From contig CAWFKI010000005.1 in assembly GCA_963816345.1 (NCBI GenBank), positions 607,572 to 671,571 of the forward strand: a DNA stretch of 64,000 bases, given 5' to 3'. The position numbers were made by a program, and so were the translations under genes. Shown here one piece after another: positions 16,711 through 60,136 of the stretch (positions within the stretch are counted from its first letter, which is position 1; every line of letters starts with the position of its first letter). Source of the DNA: an uncultured Bacteroidales bacterium. Lineage in GTDB: Bacteria; Bacteroidota; Bacteroidia; Bacteroidales; VadinHA17. Below the pieces are notes generated by a model. That model made no database searches. It was given only the letters and a program-made list of their open reading frames with translations, and was not told the DNA's origin.

Positions 16711-16999
16711 AGTTTCAGTTTTAAATGATGGTAAATATATTTGTTATAGTTGGATTAGGGGTTCTCAAGTTGTTAAATATTATTAAAAAAATGCACCTGC
16801 GAATCGCCGCTTTTCCCTCTGTTGACCCCATAACACACTGTCATCCTGAGTTTTTATCCAAAGTTTTGTACTTCTGGTATAATGACAACCAGAATCAATT
16901 AATTTTGTACGGGTTACACAAGCATGACCTTCGCTTTAGCAGTGCCACGAGGAATCTCAAACTCCTGTCAGTCGTCAGGTATGTTTAAAGATGGTTCTC

Positions 17000-17230
17000 G
17001 CCCCGTAGGGGCATAATAACATAACACAGGGCAACGCCCTGTGTAAAAACGCTCTCTTCTTACCCCAAAGCCCCGTAGGGGCGGAATAACAAAACACCGG
17101 AAGATCCATTTCGTCTGATCCTCTATGGCTGATGGTATCACTTTATTACGCCCCTACGGGGCTGAAGGAGAGGGAGGTACCATCAGGCAGGGCTCCGCCC
17201 TGCCCTATAATATGTAAGGCCTACGGCCTT
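17000..17230. repeat. Cluster of six GC-rich 3-nt-loop hairpins (REP-like palindromic units)
   Basis: The six hairpins are:
- GCCCC-GTA-GGGGC at 17000-17012.
- The same hairpin at 17070-17082.
- Its inverted copy GCCCC-TAC-GGGGC at 17150-17162.
- CACAGGGC-AAC-GCCCTGTG at 17025-17043.
- GGCAGGGC-TCC-GCCCTGCC at 17186-17204.
- AAGGCC-TAC-GGCCTT plus a T-run at 17216-17232.
The GCCCCGTAGGGGC units are each followed by an RKAATAA tail. Confidence 0.7.
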
Positions 17231-17775
17231 TTGCTCACCACTTCCATTTTAGTAATCACTGAGCCTTTCTTGTAAATTGAAACGGGTACTATCTTTAATG
17301 CAGACGCGAGTATATTTGGGTAGAAAACCAGAATCATAAACCTTGTTTAATTGCATTCTTCAAATGGCGCATAGTTGCCTGCTTCCGGTTATGTTTCCGG
17401 AAGATTAAGCTTCTTAAAATATAATTAGCTTATAATGTGTAGTTTACAAATGTTGTCATTAGTAGCGAAGCGAAGGATCTCACACTCCCGTTACATGTAC
17501 ACTTCCAGCGATCTTGCCATATTCATTTCTGCCATCCTGCAGGGCTGCTAATTGCGGGTGATATTTGTTGGCCAGCTCCCGGTCACACTTTATTATAAGT
17601 TGGTGAAATTTTAATAAATTTATATAATCAGAATTAAATCCAGTCAGAATTTAACAGTGAATTTTGCAGCATCCGGTCATTGTTGACCGTCATTACTCAA
17701 AAAAGATAATGTTTTCCTGGTTTGAGATTCCCGGCCGGAGCTGACAAATCATACTCTGAAACATAAGTTATAATC

Positions 17776-24665: not shown

Positions 24666-24836
24666 CTACGCTCTTTGCCCTGTGCCCCGTGCCCTGTGCT
24701 CCGTGCTCTGTGCCCTGTGCCCTGTGCTCCGTGCTCTGTGCCCTGTGCCCTGTGCTCTGTGCCCCGTGCCCTGTGCTCTGTGCCCCGTGCCCTGTGCCAT
24801 CCGCTCCCCGTTCTTCCGTCTTCTGTCTTCTGTCTT
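24666..24836. repeat. 7-bp tandem array, about 24 units, consensus CYGTGCY decaying into CTTCYGT
   Basis: I parsed this by hand in register from 24666: ctacgct ctttgcc ctgtgcc ccgtgcc ctgtgct ccgtgct ... There is a perfect 28-bp higher-order duplication (24694-24721 equals 24722-24749). There is also a 21-bp duplication (24750-24770 equals 24771-24791). Confidence 0.9.
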
Positions 24837-24935
24837 CAAAAAGTCAATCTTTTCTCATATATTTGATTACCTCAGTTTTTAAATGGGATACCGGATTATT
24901 GGATAGAAGTTTATAATAAAATTTAACTGCGGAGT

Positions 24936-26606
24936 ATGAAACTTAAGATTTTTTTACCGGCAACACTGTTTTTCATTATGATTCAGGCTGTTAAAGCGGA
25001 ACCACTTCATCAGTGGGAGGTGTTCACTGTCTCATTTACATCAGGGAAGATTTATTCAAATCCCTACAGCGATATCCCTGTCGCGGGTGGGGATGATCTG
25101 CTGAAGGTGACCTTTCTGGGGACGGGAGGTGAGGCAATGAATAAGAAAATTACAGTAGTCGGATTCTGGGATGGCGGTTCTGTATGGCGGGTCAATTTTA
25201 CAGCTCCCTTCACCGGCAGCTGGAAATACAGCAGTCAGTCGGCCGACAGGAAGATGAACGGCAAAAAGGGAAGCTTTGATGTAGTGGCATGGACTGAGGA
25301 AGAGAAGAATGCCGTTCCTGTAAGGCACGGTTTCATAACTGTGAAAAATGATGGCAAACAGAGTGGCCATTATTTTGAATATTCCGACGGTCACCCTTTT
25401 CTCTGGATTGGTGACACCTGGTGGAACTGGACTGACGGGAGGATCCATTTTGATTCATTCAAAAAGCTTGTCGATAACAGGGCGGAGAAGGGTTTTAACA
25501 TTGGTCAGCTCTTTGTCCCGGGGAACGGCTGGGGCATTGAGAGCTCCATGCTGGATACGACCTACAATATTCTGGATACCGAACATGTGAAGAGGGTGGA
25601 GGAGATGATCAGGTACGCAAATTCAAAAGGCATTACGGTATGGATACACGGATGGTGGAGCAGGCCTGATCTGAAGAGCAGCGTAGGGGCGGAAAAGATC
25701 GAACGCTGGTGGCGCTACCTGATACATCGTTTCGGAGCATACAATGTGATATGGGTTCTTGCCGGTGAATATAATATGAATAATTATGGTGGCTTCAGTC
25801 TTGACTTCTGGAAGAAACTGGGGAGCATGATAAAGAAAGAGGATCCTTATAACAGGATTGTGGGTGTCCACAGTACGCCTCCTTTCTGGGAAGGTGGTGC
25901 GGAAGCTCCTCAATGGGCAACCGGGAGTGTTTTGAATCAGGAGCCGTGGCTGGATTATAACCAGAGCCAGGTTGGCCACGGCAGGTATGCGAATGAGATG
26001 ATCCCGTTGGTTGTGGCGGAAGAGTACAGTCTCAGTCCTGCCAAACCTATTGTTGTGACTGAACCATGGTACGAATTTATTGAGGGTAATCCGACCGGGA
26101 AAGATATCAGGTTTGGGGCATGGTCGGCAATTCTCTCAGGTGCAGCAGGGCACTCTTACGGGGGAGGGCATGTATGGCTGGCAAGTGTTCCGGAATCGCC
26201 TGCAGGTGAAGGAGACTGGCCTATGGAGAAAGGATTTGACCGGACCACATATGATTATGAAGGAGCGGTATCGATGAAGAACCTGGCAGGGTTCTTCAGG
26301 GATGTAAAGTGGTGGAACATGGCGCCGCATCCGGAGCTGGTAAAGGAATATCCGCAGCCTTTCTGCCTTGCGGATCCCGGGAAGGAATATGTTTTATATC
26401 TGAGGTATGCGGGGATGGTGAAGGTTAAAATGGATCAGCCGGCCACTTCGGGAAAATATCTGTACAGGTGGTTTGATCCGGCTTCGGGTAAATTCTCAGA
26501 AGAGAAGAGCTTTCAGGGATCGGATATGCTTGAATTTCATTGTCCCGAATCATTCCCTGCTGTTCCCGGCTATAAGGATTGGGTTCTTTATATCAGAAGG
26601 CTTTAA
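24936..26606 (+). CDS. GH140-like glycoside hydrolase (DUF5060 N-terminal domain plus DUF4038 catalytic domain)
   Basis: It has a signal peptide and a DUF5060-like beta-sandwich (VVGFWDGGSVWRVNFTAPFTGSWKYSS). The DUF4038 hallmark SDGHPFLWIGDTWWNW...AEKGFNIGQ follows. It is a paralogue of 5591..6994. Confidence 0.75.
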   Translation: MKLKIFLPATLFFIMIQAVKAEPLHQWEVFTVSFTSGKIYSNPYSDIPVAGGDDLLKVTFLGTGGEAMNKKITVVGFWDGGSVWRVNFTAPFTGSWKYSSQSADRKMNGKKGSFDVVAWTEEEKNAVPVRHGFITVKNDGKQSGHYFEYSDGHPFLWIGDTWWNWTDGRIHFDSFKKLVDNRAEKGFNIGQLFVPGNGWGIESSMLDTTYNILDTEHVKRVEEMIRYANSKGITVWIHGWWSRPDLKSSVGAEKIERWWRYLIHRFGAYNVIWVLAGEYNMNNYGGFSLDFWKKLGSMIKKEDPYNRIVGVHSTPPFWEGGAEAPQWATGSVLNQEPWLDYNQSQVGHGRYANEMIPLVVAEEYSLSPAKPIVVTEPWYEFIEGNPTGKDIRFGAWSAILSGAAGHSYGGGHVWLASVPESPAGEGDWPMEKGFDRTTYDYEGAVSMKNLAGFFRDVKWWNMAPHPELVKEYPQPFCLADPGKEYVLYLRYAGMVKVKMDQPATSGKYLYRWFDPASGKFSEEKSFQGSDMLEFHCPESFPAVPGYKDWVLYIRRL

Positions 26607-26833
26607 GGCATGAAGTATCTGATGATCTGAATTATGGTCAATACATACTGTTTATCTTCTGTTGATAGTCAACTCATTAATTGACTTTACGAATTCATAA
26701 TGCAATTCAATAAAAATATTTAACTTGTGGTACAATGTGAGAGTCAGGCAAAAGCATAATAAAGAGTATGTTGTGGGGATAATATTTGCAGGTGCTTCTG
26801 TGACTGACGGGGCGGGAGCGTCGGCGGAGGGGA

Positions 26834-26964
26834 GAGCGTAGAGCGTAGACATTGCCAGCCGTAGCTTCTATTACCTGCAGAGTATTATCAAGTGAGAAAG
26901 CGAAGGCTGGGCGTAGAGTAAAGAGATTAGTAATCGGTATTCAGTATTCGGTAATCGGTAAGTT
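26834..26964. repeat. Composite intergenic element: heptamers (GAGCGTA x2), 17-nt core, 31-nt variable insert, GGCTGGGC, then heptamers (GTAATCG/GTATTCG x5)
   Basis: The core ATTGCCAGCCGTAGCTT (26851-26867) is the exact reverse complement of 40123-40139. AGCGAAGGCTGGGC matches the reverse complement of 40078-40091 with one mismatch. A 12-bp palindrome, cctcccgggagg, follows at 26975-26986. Confidence 0.8.
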
Positions 26965-27178
26965 CAGAGAATCTCCTCCCGGGAGGGGCAGGGGTGGGTT
27001 TAAGCTAAGGAGAAGTAGTTAGTAAGCAGTACTTGGTAATAGTATCAACTTTTCTTGACCTTAACAGGAGAAGATTCTAACCTGTAACAGTTGCTTTCTC
27101 GAACAGTTTGGTTAAAGTGTGCGTTAACAGGCATCAGACCTTTAAAATCAAATTTGTATTTTAAAAAACAGGCCATTT

Positions 27179-28399
27179 ATGAAAACAGTCAAATTACTCG
27201 CATTAATTTTATTCTTTACAGAAATGGCTTACTCGCAAAACACAGATGATGTGGTCATTGCAAAAAGAATCAGGATAACTTCGGCCATACTGAGTGAGGA
27301 ACGGACAATTTCCGTTTCTACTCCAAACGGTTATAATGAATCGAAGGATTCTTATCCGGTGCTGTATGTCCTGGATGGAGAGACCGCAGTCATAGGACTC
27401 CTGAATTATTTATCTGACTATGGTGTGTGTCCCAAACTGATTATTGTCTCTGTTGAAGGAGTCAACCCTTCAAGGGATATGTTTCCATCCAGGCCAAAAT
27501 ATAGCAGAGGTACACAACCGGCAAAACCCTGGTATAACAAAGAAGAGGATAATAATTTAAGAGCCTCCTTGCCCGGTGAAAAATTGGGAGAGGCAGATAA
27601 TTACCTCTCATTTATTGAAACAGAGCTTTTCCCTTTTATCGAAAAAAACTACCGTACGGTCCCTTACAGAATTTGTTGTGGTCATTCAAAAGGCGGTCTC
27701 TGCGTAACCCATGCTTTCCTTTCCCACACTGATATGTTTAATGCCTTTATTGCTCTAAATCCTTCTCTTTATTGGGACGACGGATTAGTGCTGAAGACTG
27801 CAGAACAAAAACTCACAAGCCTGAACCTTAAGCACAAGCTGTTTTATTTCGATATAGGAGGTAATGAAGTTCCTTCTACTATTGGAGATGCATTTGCTTT
27901 TGCCCGGATAATAAAAGAAAATGCCTCTGCAGACCTGAGATGGAAACTTGACTATCTGGCTAATGAAAGCCATAGCAGCGGGACAGCTGTCGGGATTATT
28001 AATGCACTGAAATTTATTTATGATGGCTGGGATTTTGATATTAACAAAATAAAGCGGGAAGGGGTAGCAGCTATTGATAGTTTTTATAAGAATCTTTCAG
28101 AAAGGTATGGATACAGGATTTCATACGATGCAGCTCTGTTGAATAATTATGGGTGGGGTTATGTACGTGATGGCAGGCATGAAGAGGCTATAAAAATATT
28201 CCGGGAAAATGTCCGTAGATTCCCTGATTCACCTGATGCGTACAACTACCTTGGGGAAGGATATCTGGCAGCCAATCATATTGAAATGGCAATTAAGAGT
28301 TATGAAAAGGCAATAGAACTGGCAACATCTTCAGAGGATGATCAAAAAGTGGCTTTTTTAAAGAGCCGGATCGAAAGTATCAAAGCAGGTAAAAAGTAA
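27179..28399 (+). CDS. Secreted alpha/beta-hydrolase esterase (esterase D/IroE-like 'putative esterase' fold) with C-terminal TPR repeats
   Basis: It has a signal peptide, YPVLYVLDG, and the nucleophile elbow CGHSKGG. The C-terminal ~90 aa has a TPR pattern (AYNYLGEGYLAANHIEMAIKSYEKAIEL). Confidence 0.7.
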   Translation: MKTVKLLALILFFTEMAYSQNTDDVVIAKRIRITSAILSEERTISVSTPNGYNESKDSYPVLYVLDGETAVIGLLNYLSDYGVCPKLIIVSVEGVNPSRDMFPSRPKYSRGTQPAKPWYNKEEDNNLRASLPGEKLGEADNYLSFIETELFPFIEKNYRTVPYRICCGHSKGGLCVTHAFLSHTDMFNAFIALNPSLYWDDGLVLKTAEQKLTSLNLKHKLFYFDIGGNEVPSTIGDAFAFARIIKENASADLRWKLDYLANESHSSGTAVGIINALKFIYDGWDFDINKIKREGVAAIDSFYKNLSERYGYRISYDAALLNNYGWGYVRDGRHEEAIKIFRENVRRFPDSPDAYNYLGEGYLAANHIEMAIKSYEKAIELATSSEDDQKVAFLKSRIESIKAGKK

Positions 28400-38742: not shown

Positions 38743-40005
38743 TCAGATAGGCCTGGCATTTGCCAGAAGATATTTCTCTGCCTCCAGTGACCATATGAAA
38801 TGGTTTTTCGACACAATTTCATGAAGCCCCGCATAGAATTTATCCTTCAGGCCCGGCTCCCCAAGCTTATTAAGAGCAACAAGCGGCATTGATATATTTG
38901 TGTAAATGAGTTTTTTACCCCCGGGAATACCCGGTAGGTTAAGGGTTGTATCCACGACGGCATCCAGACCGCCCACATGGGTGATCATGATTGCAGGATT
39001 TATTTTTCCTTCACCCATAAGCCTTAACGATTCCCGCATGTCATCGGTATTTCCCCCTGATGTCCCCACAATATGGGTAAATGCATAATGCACGTTATAA
39101 AAATTGAATTCAGCCCTGAATTCAGGATTTGTCGGTCCTGCGAAAAAGTTGAGACAGCCGTCAAAACCAAGTATCGCATCGGCCTGCTCAATCACTGGTT
39201 TAACAGGCGCAAATACGAAGACATCGTCAAATCCTGTCCCTCCCGTAATTTCACGCAGATGTCTGACAGGATCATTCATTCTTCCGGTATTGACATAGAT
39301 CAATCTTATTCCATCCTTTTCAGCCTGTTCAGGGGTGAAAAGCGATGACGCTCTCATAAGCCGGTTCTCATCAATATCTGTCACCACAAGCATTGAAGGC
39401 TTATGATCCTGATGCAGGGCGTAATCGATGGCGCCCAGTCCCATGGGCCCCACACCGGCAAGAATAGCCATTTTCCCTCCCTTTTTTATTCCCATTTCAT
39501 GCACATAGGTGCCAGGCGGAACATGGTAACTTGCATGAAATGCTCCTACTATGCAAGACATTGGTTCCGAGAGAGATGCAGGAAAAAATGCATCACCATC
39601 ATAGGGAAGAAGGCAATCAGCCTCCATCACGATTCTTGGTATGATAACATAGGTTGCATCTCCGCCGATGTAACGGAAGGAATACCCGGGAGCATTCAGA
39701 CTCCCTGTCTGATTCATTGCCGGTTGGATTGAAAATTTCTGGCCTGCCGTGAATTTATTCTTCCATTTCTCTCCGACCTCCAGGATCATGCCGGCAAATT
39801 CATGACCTATTATTGTCGGATTTATGTGGATATCATCCGGAACGCGCTTATGATCAGCACCCTGTATAGCAGCCTTGTGGGATGACATGCAGATGCTGTC
39901 GGAGATTACATGTGCCAGGATCTCATCATCCTTAAGTTCAGGAAGTTCAAATTCGTCAAGTCGAAGATCCTTCTTCCCGTAAATTCTGACTGCTTTCGTT
40001 TTCAT
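38743..40005 (-). CDS. Long-form Zn-binding MDR dehydrogenase (420 aa)
   Basis: It has a GroES-like domain with ICMSSHK and GHEFAGMILEV, and the Rossmann motif LAGVGPMGLGAI. It is longer than classical ADHs because of inserts. Confidence 0.8.
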   Translation of the reverse strand: MKTKAVRIYGKKDLRLDEFELPELKDDEILAHVISDSICMSSHKAAIQGADHKRVPDDIHINPTIIGHEFAGMILEVGEKWKNKFTAGQKFSIQPAMNQTGSLNAPGYSFRYIGGDATYVIIPRIVMEADCLLPYDGDAFFPASLSEPMSCIVGAFHASYHVPPGTYVHEMGIKKGGKMAILAGVGPMGLGAIDYALHQDHKPSMLVVTDIDENRLMRASSLFTPEQAEKDGIRLIYVNTGRMNDPVRHLREITGGTGFDDVFVFAPVKPVIEQADAILGFDGCLNFFAGPTNPEFRAEFNFYNVHYAFTHIVGTSGGNTDDMRESLRLMGEGKINPAIMITHVGGLDAVVDTTLNLPGIPGGKKLIYTNISMPLVALNKLGEPGLKDKFYAGLHEIVSKNHFIWSLEAEKYLLANARPI

Positions 40006-40044
40006 TATTATATCTTTTAATTTAAACCACGACCCACAAACTGG

Positions 40045-40175
40045 CTCTACGCTCTACGCTCGTCCCTGTGCCCTGTGCCCAGCCTCCGCTACAACCTTTG
40101 CTAAAGCTACGGTTGTCGAAGAAAGCTACGGCTGGCAATGCCTGTGCTCTGTGCTCTGAGCCCTGCGCCCTGCGC
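40045..40175. repeat. Composite intergenic element, inverted copy of the 26.85 kb element, flanked by heptamers (CTCTACG x2, CTGTGCC x2, then CTCTGTG/CCCTGCG)
   Basis: AAGCTACGGCTGGCAAT (40123-40139) is the exact reverse complement of 26851-26867. The internal part has the direct repeat AAAGCTACGG x2 and the ACAACC/GGTTGT inverted repeat. It lies between two same-strand genes (40005 and 40180). Confidence 0.85.
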
Positions 40176-40179
40176 TTTA

Positions 40180-42154
40180 TCACCCCAGCATCACCTGTCC
40201 CCCGGTGACGGGAACAGCCTGCCCTGTTTCATATTCCTGGTCGATAATATATAAAAGGGCCTTCATGACATCCTCCAGTTTACAGCCCCTCTTAATAGGG
40301 ACCTGGTCTTCATAAAATTTCCTTACATCCTCAATATTCTTTGCTCCGGGCACCTTACCTGTCTTAAGATACTGGACAAACAATCCGTTATGGGGATCTG
40401 ACCATAGGGGACCTTCATAAAAATTACCCGGGCAAATGGAATTTACTTTGATCCTGTAGGGAGCCAGTTCCATTGCAAATGACTGGGTGAGGCCAATTCC
40501 TCCGAATTTAGCACCGGCATACGCGAAGTTCCGGTTCGATCCTCTCAGCCCTGATTTGGAGTTGATCTGGATAATATCCGTAAAAGCCGGAGGATTTTCC
40601 TTGTTCTGAAGTTTCATAACTTCTGAAGCATATTTTACACAATGGAAGTACCCGTTATAGTTTACCTCAGTTGATTTTAAGAATACATCAGGATCCATTT
40701 CATCAAGCCCGCCGGCCTTTAATATCCCGGCATTTGCTACCATAAGATCAAGACCTCCGAATTCCTTTACAGTTGAGATTATCATCTCCTTCACCGACTC
40801 AGGATCTGCCACATCAGTTTTAATAAATACCGCATTATTGAATCTCTTATTCTTTATAAGCCCAGATACAAATGTTTTACCCGCTTTCTTCATTAAGATC
40901 GGCCACTACTACATTAAGGTTCATCGAATAGAGAGCCTCTGCAATTCCGGCACCAAATCCCTGGGCTCCGCCGGTAACAATGGCGATTTTATTATTAAGT
41001 CTGCTTCCCTGGCTGGCTGAAGCGTGAGACTTTTCTTCTGTAATTCTCAACCTCCCACTGATCAATAAATGCAACCTGGTCAGGGGTAAGGAATTTGATA
41101 CCTCCGCAGAGGCTTGCATAGTAGCTTATCCTTATGAAATCTTCATATACATCAAGAGCTGCCTCAGCCGAAGCATAGTTCTCAGCGAAGGCAAAGATCC
41201 CCATATCCTTTATTACAACTATCCTGGGTGAGTAACCATATTCGCTGATGAAATGCGGAAGCTGGTACCTGAAGGAATCCAGTATTTTTTCCGCCGTTGA
41301 TGAATGTTCTATGTAGAGATATCTTGTCTTGCAATAAACGATAATATCCGGTGTAAGAGGCAGTGAGATCTTATGAAACTCGATTTGGTTCTGATAAAAC
41401 CTGGCAATAACTGAATTATTTCTGAACCTCATAATCCCCTGGGCTTCGCCTGAGAGCAGGGCCCTTAAGCCGGGAAGAACTTTGTGAAGCAAAGGGTTAT
41501 AGGGCAGGGGATCAATTTCCGTCAGGGGAGTATCTGTTCTCCGATCTTTTGTATTATACCATTGTATATTTCCCTGATCTCCTGAGTTGTATCAGCGCCC
41601 ACAAATACCCCGTGGTTTTCAAGGAATATGATCCCCGGATCATTGGAGAGCTTCTGCCGGTAGTTTATGATCTCCGCCTCAAGTTTCTTAAAAAGAATAT
41701 AACCCGGATCGGTATAGGGTACGAAGAGTACAGTATCGCCGAATAGTTTGGCGGTCAGGTTCTTTGCATTCCTGCTGCAGAGTAGTCCGTTAATGATAGT
41801 AGGATGGAGGTGAACTACAAATCTGTACCGGATGATTTCATGGAGGGAAGTCTCAACGGATGGGCGTTTGTTTTTACCGGGATCAAGAATACTCAGAAAC
41901 ATATCACCCTTAACCTGCTCCTCCCTTATGGAGGGCTCATCAGAATAGGTTTTTGAGGATATGACATGAAGCTTTTCCCTGTCAAGTGCTACAAGGCTCT
42001 CCTCGGTCATTTCAGCCAGTGACTGACCGCTTGCCTTTATCCAGATGGTCCCATTATCCTTGAATGAGGTGTTTCCTCCTCCTGCTATGACATATTCCTT
42101 ATTATTTCCGTAGTGCCTCGATATTTCAATCAGTTCTTTTATTTCCGGCTTCAT
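40180..42154 (-). pseudogene. Bifunctional class II aldolase/adducin-domain plus short-chain dehydrogenase (rhamnulose-1-phosphate aldolase/SDR-like), split by three frameshifts
   Basis: Four consecutive ORFs read as one ~650-700 aa protein. They are 41522..42154 (AGGGNTSFK aldolase N-terminus), 40995..41492 (middle, WEVENYRRKV), 40877..41119 (SDR TGGAQGFG) and 40180..40893 (NAG...YAGAK... SDR core). The junctions are at the G4/C4 run at 41525-41528, the T4/A4 run near 41041-41044, and near 40880-40892. Confidence 0.8.
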
Positions 42155-60037: not shown

Positions 60038-60052
60038 AAATGGGTCAAAGAG

Positions 60053-60136
60053 CTCAGGGCGAAGGGCGCCGGGCTCAGGGCGCAGGGCTCAGGGCTCAGA
60101 GCACAGGGCTCAGGGCAAGGGGCACAGAGCGGAGAG
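60053..60136. repeat. 7-bp tandem array, 12 units, consensus CNCAGGG (complement of the CYGTGCY/CCCTGNG family)
   Basis: I parsed this in register: ctcaggg cgaaggg cgccggg ctcaggg cgcaggg ctcaggg ctcagag cacaggg ctcaggg caagggg cacagag cggagag. It begins 16 nt after the stop at 60037. Confidence 0.9.

Follow-up and report, generated by a model that had tools for sequence, protein, structure and literature searches.

A probable REP/MITE-like palindromic repeat at two intergenic heptamer arrays of an uncultured Bacteroidales bacterium, and its relatives at tRNA gene ends

Two short hairpin-forming elements lie within intergenic arrays of 7-nt repeats in a 64,000-nt stretch of DNA from an uncultured Bacteroidales bacterium (contig CAWFKI010000005.1), referred to here as the window. 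Locus 1 falls between open reading frames (ORFs) at 24936-26606 and 27179-28399, both on the plus strand. Locus 2 occupies the 174-nt spacer between ORFs at 40180-40893 and 38743-40005, both on the minus strand. The flanking genes encode an apiosidase-like hydrolase, an esterase, an SDR and a Zn-dehydrogenase, and both elements are oriented sense to them. We describe the structure of the elements, their boundaries, and a large family of relatives, numbered L007 to L151 where single loci must be told apart. We favor, with a probability of about 0.7, the reading that each locus holds an orphan, non-coding copy of a short palindromic repeat, mobile now or recently, that resembles the repetitive extragenic palindromic (REP) sequences and the miniature inverted-repeat transposable elements (MITEs).

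A hairpin nested in a hairpin

A sequence-only reading of the window had drawn attention to two boxes shared by the loci in opposite orientation. The first, the 17-mer ATTGCCAGCCGTAGCTT, is present exactly at 26851-26867 (plus) and 40123-40139 (minus). These are its sole two matches in the window even at up to 3 mismatches, where 0.16 are expected, and two or more matches occur in 0 of 100 shuffles. The second, the 14-mer AGCGRAGGCTGGGC, is at 26899-26912 (plus) as reported; its partner agrees at 13 of 14 positions, the single difference being A versus G, but lies at 40077-40090 (minus), 1 nt from the earlier placement at 40078-40091. The gap from box to box is 31 nt in one copy and 32 nt in the other, and Tandem Repeats Finder (TRF) places both copies inside 7-nt repeat arrays; both points stand as first described. 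So does the view that the pattern is not random repeat decay: the 17-mer pair is absent from the 100 shuffles and hundreds of relatives exist elsewhere, leaving a chance product of such decay barely credible.

The reported span came near the element, whose ends are slightly different: 26850-26910 (plus, 61 nt) at locus 1 and 40079-40140 (minus, 62 nt) at locus 2. Each copy is a CATT lead followed by a composite hairpin, with the general formula C-A-T-T + GCCAGCC-GTA-GC…GC-GRA-GGCTGG. At locus 1 the hairpin runs from GCCAGCC to GGCTGG in three parts: the 5' foot at 26854-26865 (GCCAGCC stem arm, GTA internal loop, GC clamp), an exact match to the family 5' box; the interior at 26866-26899; and the 3' foot at 26900-26910 (GC clamp, GAA internal loop, GGCTGG stem arm). 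The boxes had been proposed to pair with one bulged G. They do pair, but the bulge is not a family feature. The conserved pairing is CCAGCC with GGCTGG, followed by a 3x3 loop (GTA/GAA) and a GC/GC clamp. The family foot is this 6-7 bp stem, the mismatched 3x3 loop containing GTAG, and the 2-bp clamp; the distal part is variable. One window copy has GGA in place of GAA in the loop. GTAG is invariant in the outer foot (GCC-GTAG-C), where it lies inside the 6-7 bp outer stem and not in an unpaired head, and inner units carry GTAG, GAAG or GGAG.

Two resemblances to known RNA motifs were considered and rejected. A sarcin-ricin/loop E or K-turn reading of the GUA/GAA loop fails on sequence grounds: the loop is a symmetric 3x3, a register with a bulged G would disrupt the outer stem, and GGA replaces GAA in one window copy. 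AGCCGUA recalls domain V of group II introns, and here the bulge and the remaining intron parts are lacking.

The segment between the boxes had been described as an unrelated insert, a variable loop of fixed length clamped by the boxes. Neither description holds. The interiors are about 50% identical by hand count and fall in homologous columns of an alignment of ten related copies: the two in the window together with L031, L011, L026, L110, L113, L057, L091 and L128. What fills the loop is the same hairpin over again, nested in the first, and across the family the interior ranges from 4 nt (TTTA) to more than 42 nt. At locus 2 the inner hairpin, CAACC-GTA-GC-TTTA-GC-AAA-GGTTG (40092-40115, minus), sits in the outer loop behind the linker TTTCTTCGA; its architecture is that of the outer foot, and a compensatory change has turned G-C into A-T. 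The locus 1 interior, the linker TTCTATTA followed by an inner hairpin (CCTGC AGAGT ATTA TCAAG TGAGA), occupies the same columns as the inner units of L031, L110, L057 and others, but is decayed. The near-equal spacing of 31 and 32 nt is therefore a matter of common descent of a composite, hairpin-in-hairpin element and not of a constraint on length.

The ten AT-rich copies yield the consensus TTTGCCAGCCGTAGC-TTTCTTTGA-CCTnC-GnAGC-TTTA-GCGAA-GGAGG-nA-GCGAAGGCTGG, in which a conserved linker, TTTCTTTGA, precedes an inner unit of the pattern CCNNC-GNA-GC-TTTA-GC-GAA-GGNGG. In the inner helix, 6 of 8 pairs show changes on both sides. Nesting like that of locus 2 is also found in L011, L026, L057, L091 and L110, and L031 is of the same subtype as locus 1. 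The minimal unit of the family is 27 nt, GCCAGCCGTAGC-TTTA-GCGRAGGCTGG, with the minimal hairpin sequence GCCAGCCGTAGCTTTAGCGAAGGCTGG; the window copies are composites of 57-58 nt. The locus 2 core has a fold energy of -27.4 kcal/mol (z = -2.8), and locus 1 folds more weakly (-18.8 kcal/mol, z = -1.0). The proposal of a structured element is borne out in that the helix extends into the interior with compensatory changes.

Array boundaries and hairpin-free spacers

Both elements sit at a unit boundary of their array. At locus 1 the left array (26833-26849) ends in the unit GCGTAGA at 26843-26849, and the right array begins with GCGTAGA at 26911-26917 and continues to 26961 (GTAAAGA, GATTAGT, AATCGGT…). 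Removal of the element restores the heptamer register (GCGTAGA GCGTAGA ^ GCGTAGA GTAAAGA). At locus 2, read on the minus strand, GCACAGG stands on the 5' side at 40141-40147, in an array extending to 40176, and again on the 3' side at 40072-40078, in an array extending to 40044; excision again restores the register (GCACAGA GCACAGG ^ GCACAGG GCACAGG). Perfect register after excision is also seen in L031, L091 and L077. The unit of this Bacteroidia lineage is a 61-62 nt composite, a hairpin nested in a hairpin, that lies at an array unit boundary and is flanked by a 7-nt direct repeat.

Across the family, 7-nt direct repeats matching at 6 or more of 7 positions flank 11 of the 126 copies with usable flanks, against 2.5 expected when right flanks are permuted among copies. 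Each of the 11 belongs to the AT-rich type and has a lead of 3-4 nt (CWTT, CTT or CCT), and four have little or no array around them: L010 (GGAAAAG / GAAAAAG), L025 (TTGCAGG / GTGCAGG), L113 (CCCCCTG / CCCCCTT) and L026 (ACAACTG / ACAACTT). The flanking repeats look like a 7-bp target-site duplication. A separate arrangement is seen in L077 (4640-4790), where a 37-nt tandem repeat combines a 30-nt minimal hairpin (CCT-GCCAGCCGTAGC-TTTA-GCGGAGGCTGG) with one heptamer, AGCCCTG; there are three units, the last decaying.

Relatives allow the loci to be compared with and without the element. Orthologues near-identical to the neighboring proteins carry the source labels Bacteroidia, Bacteroidota or Bacteroidales. 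The spacer between the SDR and ADH genes, which corresponds to locus 2, contains no hairpin in any of five relatives: it is 40 nt without heptamers in L147 and L148 (ADH 90% identical to that of the window), 59 nt without heptamers in L149 (88%), 90 nt with a few heptamers in L150 (87%), and 464 nt with about 290 nt of heptamers in L146 (96-97%). In L151, the syntenic apiosidase-esterase spacer (93% identity) starts with other heptamers and the hairpin is not present.

Four DNA metagenomes containing relatives tell of repetition and of precise boundaries. Contig depth over the hairpin relative to the flanks is about 7x at locus 1 and about 10x at locus 2. At locus 1, metagenome contigs match just from about 26850/26852 to 26912/26918 and diverge beyond. 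Many contigs have a match confined to the hairpin, followed by other heptamers; an additional AGAGCGT unit is present in one orthologous contig, and two contigs lack the locus 2 interior (joint 40090>40122), leaving a minimal TTTA hairpin. Taken together, the hairpin-free spacers of relatives, the depth and the contig junctions show that hairpin and arrays are separable. At both window loci the hairpin was recently gained or lost. The raised depth indicates multiple copies, 2 of which lie in these 64 kb of a 3.18-Mb contig.

The flanking arrays are head-to-tail intergenic 7-nt units whose copy number differs between strains. In L146 (2540-3000), the spacer of about 464 nt holds about 40 heptamers of the GGGCACG/GAGCGCA type, after which come GTATTCG/GTAATCG units that window locus 1 has in identical form. 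Array families are common to different loci and genomes. Within the window, two further arrays of the same unit family (TGCCCTG/TGCTCTG; complement GGGCTCA/GGGCGCA) occur at 24676-24837, where a TCTTCTG array follows, and at 60052-60127, in opposite orientations and without a hairpin.

Other palindromes and a split coding region were observed elsewhere in the window. A GC-rich palindrome, CTCCTCCCGGGAGGGGCAGGGG, stands at 26971-26992, right after the right-hand array of locus 1, and is separately matched by metagenome contigs. A cluster of small GC-rich palindromes lies at 16990-17230 in a non-coding region of about 800 nt and has no Rfam match: GCCCCGTAGGGGC, which contains GTAG, occurs three times (one inverted), CAGGGC-nnn-GCCCTG twice, and AAGGCCTACGGCCTT once. 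At 17461-17478, TAGTAGCGAAGCGAAGGATC looks like a collapsed, stemless GTAGC/GCGAAGG foot and resembles the L010 flank gatCGTAGCGAAGCGAAGattc. Finally, the region 40180-42154 (minus) holds three ORFs (41522-42154, 40995-41492 and 40180-40893) where L146 and L150 have one 657-aa fusion of an aldolase and a short-chain dehydrogenase; the split could be a frameshifted gene or a pseudogene.

Relatives at tRNA and tmRNA ends and beside a nuclease gene

The sequence-only reading would have been refuted had these two copies been the only ones. Instead the family is very large, with relatives at more than 120 metagenome loci. When one genome per species was scanned, 15 loci came back, most of them judged chance matches; five have an unforced GCGAAGG before GGCTGG. 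Two of these, L007 (a Deltaproteobacteria metagenome-assembled genome, or MAG) and L009 (a Pseudomonadota MAG), have the hairpin adjoining a tRNA-His gene. L010 and L011 are from Bacteroidota, L011 being flanked by GTTGACC heptamers, and L014 is from an uncultured bacterium. A metagenome scan for GCCAGCCGTAGC-N12-42-GCGRAGGCTGG returned at least 120 stretches; it demanded an exact match of both boxes, so box invariance in that set is uninformative. Among viral contigs there was a single match, L145, in which the copy lies beside tRNA 3' fragments at the contig edge. A literature search for the box sequences met unrelated primer matches only.

Many of these relatives are joined to stable RNA genes. 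Among the matches listed, 58 of 125 copies overlap by exactly 3 nt the CCA end of an intact tRNA or tmRNA gene, and the genes include 15 tRNA isotypes, tRNA-Sec and tmRNA. On the tRNA strand the junction reads tRNA-CCA|GCCTTCGC-[stem-loop]-GCTACGGCTGGC. Further copies abut tRNA 3' fragments, and neighboring tRNAs of the same loci, unselected by the search, bear diverged hairpin variants. One 90-nt unit recurs behind three different tRNAs on contigs of a single metagenome, whose shared sequence is confined to about 90-180 nt of hairpin unit. Some copies lie inside operons. In L017/L035 (about 598-713) the hairpin falls between tRNA-Ala and 23S rRNA in an rRNA operon (16S-tRNA-tRNA-hairpin-23S), and in L055, L085 and L094 hairpins occupy the spacers of a Thr-Tyr-Gly-Thr tRNA cluster, with an EF-Tu-like ORF next in L055. 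The hairpin must therefore be transcribed together with these stable RNAs. The window itself is different in this respect: no tRNA genes were found in it, so its copies are not tRNA trailers.

A GC-rich hairpin 3' of genes and of tRNA genes is what an intrinsic terminator would look like. The copies inside transcription units, between co-transcribed tRNAs and upstream of 23S rRNA, show that family copies are not terminators. In the window, GCGTAGAG comes after the 3' foot at locus 1 and GCACAGGG at locus 2; a T-run follows neither copy, and no terminator-like site occurs in 26550-27250 or 39900-40300. We give this explanation almost no credence.

The main alternative explanation is that the hairpin is a structured RNA. 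Beside tRNAs it would be a 3' trailer, paired with the CCA end and in control of 3' processing; in mRNAs it would be an intercistronic or 3' hairpin that stabilizes upstream RNA as REPs do. The operon copies fit it, as does one metatranscriptome contig with a tRNA followed by a hairpin variant. So do the compensatory changes seen in two helices. Once 108 distinct copies are aligned and trimmed, the four interior pairs that adjoin the foot prove to be formed in 87, 81, 70 and 66% of sequences; with the partner slid, pairing drops to 21-48%. These pairs covary, with 165 double-change cells versus 86±8 in shuffles. On the GCCAGCC strand, G:T combinations (54) exceed A:C (30), which also favors RNA, and conserved purine-rich 3x3 loops (GNA/GAA), the TTTA loop of minimal copies and the sense orientation of both window copies point the same way. 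Other observations oppose it. An early impression that AT-rich copies lie in the sense of the upstream gene (6/6) did not survive a systematic count, which gave 12 same-sense versus 10 divergent loci and so no orientation bias. At tRNAs the sense strand is the one that reads CCAGCCUUCGC and has pyrimidine mismatches; relative to the window genes that strand is antisense. Hairpin-free spacers in close relatives, direct-repeat flanks, nesting and tandem copies are traits of a spreading repeat and not of a fixed cis-element.

Searches for a known or expressed RNA were negative. Rfam 15 at gathering score found no family in the window, and its permissive mode over both window loci returned noise only (E of 1 or more), a further point against the RNA explanation. 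A permissive Rfam search of 18 tRNA-adjacent loci found tRNA, rRNA and glmS only, none over the hairpins. None of the RNA runs searched for the window contained it, and metatranscriptome contigs on a Verrucomicrobiota locus matched essentially the tRNA only. On balance we consider a structured RNA an unlikely account of the element.

The junction with tRNA genes also recalls site-specific recombination, since tRNA and tmRNA 3' ends are classical integration sites. The element could be a folded-DNA site, either integron attC-like or a phage or island attachment site beside tRNA genes, with its paired base bound by a recombinase and its distal part variable. Its architecture parallels that of attC in the conserved paired base, unpaired central spacer and terminal structure of variable length. 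The tRNA 3' fragments beside the copy at the viral contig edge in L145 would suit such a role, and one copy (L139) is near an integrase fragment. Against this, the attC R-box consensus (GTTRRRY/RYYYAAC) is absent from the window copies, whose stem base is GCCAGCC…GGCTGG; neither an integrase nor a cassette array lies near them; most copies across the family are without a nearby recombinase; and copies occur within tRNA operons and an rRNA operon. We regard a recombination site as very improbable.

The only gene repeatedly linked to the hairpin family encodes a GIY-YIG nuclease, in a profile hidden Markov model (HMM) search that was aimed at GIY-YIG only. About 20 loci (22 HMM hits) have, on the tRNA strand and 60-300 nt past the hairpin, a small ORF of about 80 aa (MxxYHYVYxLxS…) that matches PF01541 at E of about 1e-15; no NCBIfam model matched it. 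Its closest solved relatives are the UPF0213 protein BH0048 and SLX1, and its homologues are labeled GIY-YIG nuclease, from Verrucomicrobiota or Limisphaerales. Between the first hairpin and the start codon stands a second one in opposite orientation, (C/T)CCGCC-(G/A)TAG…GGCGG(G/A)C, preceded by GCGAAGGCTG. A 431-bp block is 95% identical between L071 and L076, whose sequences to either side of it are unrelated; it comprises a 23-nt piece of a tRNA 3' end along with the two hairpins and the ORF, and the hairpin foot is its tRNA-proximal end. A reverse test through three homologous proteins led every time to a locus with a tRNA (or fragment), the hairpin and the ORF; one contig is L072, so two of these are independent. 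The gene was not seen in Bacteroidota-type loci. In the literature searched, no paper joined GIY-YIG with REP, REPIN or RAYT (REP-associated tyrosine transposase), save one chance word match, and none relevant linked GIY-YIG with tRNA or a palindrome. In L139 (6900-10250), the cassette stands behind a mere 22-nt tRNA-Thr 3' fragment, with the phage-integrase fragment 2.6 kb away; this cassette may move together with an island that integrated at a tRNA gene, or may mark its border.

Comparison with known repeats and proposed mechanism

Several known systems share features with the family. The closest parallels are with REP/BIME sequences, especially the GTAG-tagged REPs mobilized by RAYT (Y1) proteins (PMC3733652, PMC3116915, PMC3479197). 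Both are short imperfect palindromes with GTAG at the stem foot, here enclosed by the outer stem, and with frequent G:T pairs, an intergenic or 3'-of-gene location and lineage-specific subfamilies, and the 27-nt minimal unit is itself an imperfect palindrome that forms a stem-loop within the REP range of about 20-40 nt. Inverted pairs are typical of REPs, and the two opposed hairpins upstream of the GIY-YIG gene are REP-doublet-like; a single nuclease-type gene flanked by repeats is likewise common to both. The differences are substantial. Here the associated gene encodes a GIY-YIG nuclease, and no RAYT was seen in a search that was not exhaustive and included no Y1-transposase profile. The present foot is identical across phyla, whereas REPs are usually species- or genus-specific. 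A constant overlap of 3 nt with tRNA and tmRNA CCA ends sets the family apart, and Bacteroidia copies have 7-nt direct repeats, which RAYT/IS200-type chemistry does not make. We call the window element REP-like without assigning it to the RAYT-REP class.

MITEs (Correia/NEMIS, RUP, ERIC, Nezha) are alike in being small, non-coding and multi-copy, with inverted-repeat hairpin ends, short direct repeats, and filled and unfilled sites. Terminal inverted repeats are present here as GCCAGCC…GGCTGG(C), one end bearing a further lead of 3-4 nt (CWTT). The 61-nt element is at the very small end of the MITE range and its ends are asymmetric owing to this lead; the same foot recurs in distant phyla in a fixed tRNA-end context, and no parent insertion sequence was seen in the fetched loci. 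Integron attC sites, which resemble the element as set out above, need one folded strand for their function, and differ in that no R/L box consensus, integron integrase or cassette array is found here.

A palindrome downstream of tRNA genes has one precedent in the literature searched: in Methanopyrus kandleri, CGTTA(N9)TAACG lies about 10 bp downstream of about half of the tRNA genes and was proposed as a 3'-end maturation signal (PMC5217627). It too is a palindrome on the 3' side of many, but not all, tRNA genes, but it is archaeal and species-specific, unrelated in sequence, and without CCA overlap or an associated gene. Long simple-sequence repeats with a 7-nt period are also known; the relevant passage of PMC4679880, summarizing Mrazek et al. 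2007, mentions TAACTGA arrays in Beggiatoaceae, Cyanobacteria and Bacteroidetes. The window flanks are similar in their intergenic tandem 7-nt units of strain-variable number; they differ in the units themselves, and the arrays here are landing sites for hairpins. The literature searched contained no description of the present consensus, of a cross-phylum hairpin fused to tRNA CCA ends, or of a pairing of a GIY-YIG nuclease with a repeat.

Of the options listed in the sequence-only reading, the miniature mobile element fits best: the element has discrete ends, 7-nt flanking repeats, hairpin-free spacers in close relatives and many other contexts. The mechanism we envisage has four features. 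The element would spread as DNA. Its foot would be a protein-recognition module, read on a folded single strand or an extruded cruciform. A trans-acting enzyme would make a 7-bp staggered cut and insert the element, whereby 7 bp are duplicated. The candidate enzyme would be the associated Slx1/UPF0213-type GIY-YIG nuclease. At the two window loci the element is probably without a dedicated function, and at most a stable hairpin in an intergenic transcript.

A number of points weigh against the favored reading. Within arrays, a 7-nt flank is automatic for any in-register insertion, and the duplication argument rests on about four copies. In the 126-copy flank test, the GC-rich tRNA-adjacent copies are without the 7-nt duplication, and they may spread or function differently. 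The 64-kb window contains no GIY-YIG ORF by HMM search, and no transposase or nuclease gene for the element was identified in it. Conservation of the foot is partly due to ascertainment, the comparison sequences are mostly metagenome contigs or MAGs, and there is no direct evidence of present-day movement. Moreover, an RNA motif would also be consistent with the covariation, the excess of G:T and the conservation of the GNA/GAA loops.

A bolder extension of the mobile-repeat reading can be formulated, which we think rather doubtful. In it, the foot would be the recognition and cleavage site of stand-alone UPF0213/Slx1-like GIY-YIG nucleases, a second nuclease-repeat partnership beside RAYT-REP, which would home to tRNA and tmRNA CCA ends in Verrucomicrobiota and other phyla. 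In Bacteroidia, a 61-nt non-autonomous derivative would produce 7-bp duplications that, through repeated insertion and excision together with slippage, would seed the heptamer arrays that characterize these genomes. We know of no prior proposal that links 7-bp target duplications to 7-nt arrays.

Few parts of bacterial genomes are as poorly understood as small palindromic repeats, to which an undescribed family with the same 23-nt foot across phyla is added. Its strict CCA-end junction and its link to a tiny GIY-YIG nuclease gene are absent from Rfam and from the literature searched. In practical terms, hairpins and arrays break assemblies and create strain-level polymorphism in intergenic length. 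The clean in-register insertions suggest a possible origin, or at least a targeting rule, for 7-nt microsatellite arrays. If the nuclease does act on the hairpin, the poorly understood UPF0213/YhbQ-like proteins would gain a defined substrate, and the family would provide a second case in which a repeat population is maintained by a nuclease, domesticated or selfish.

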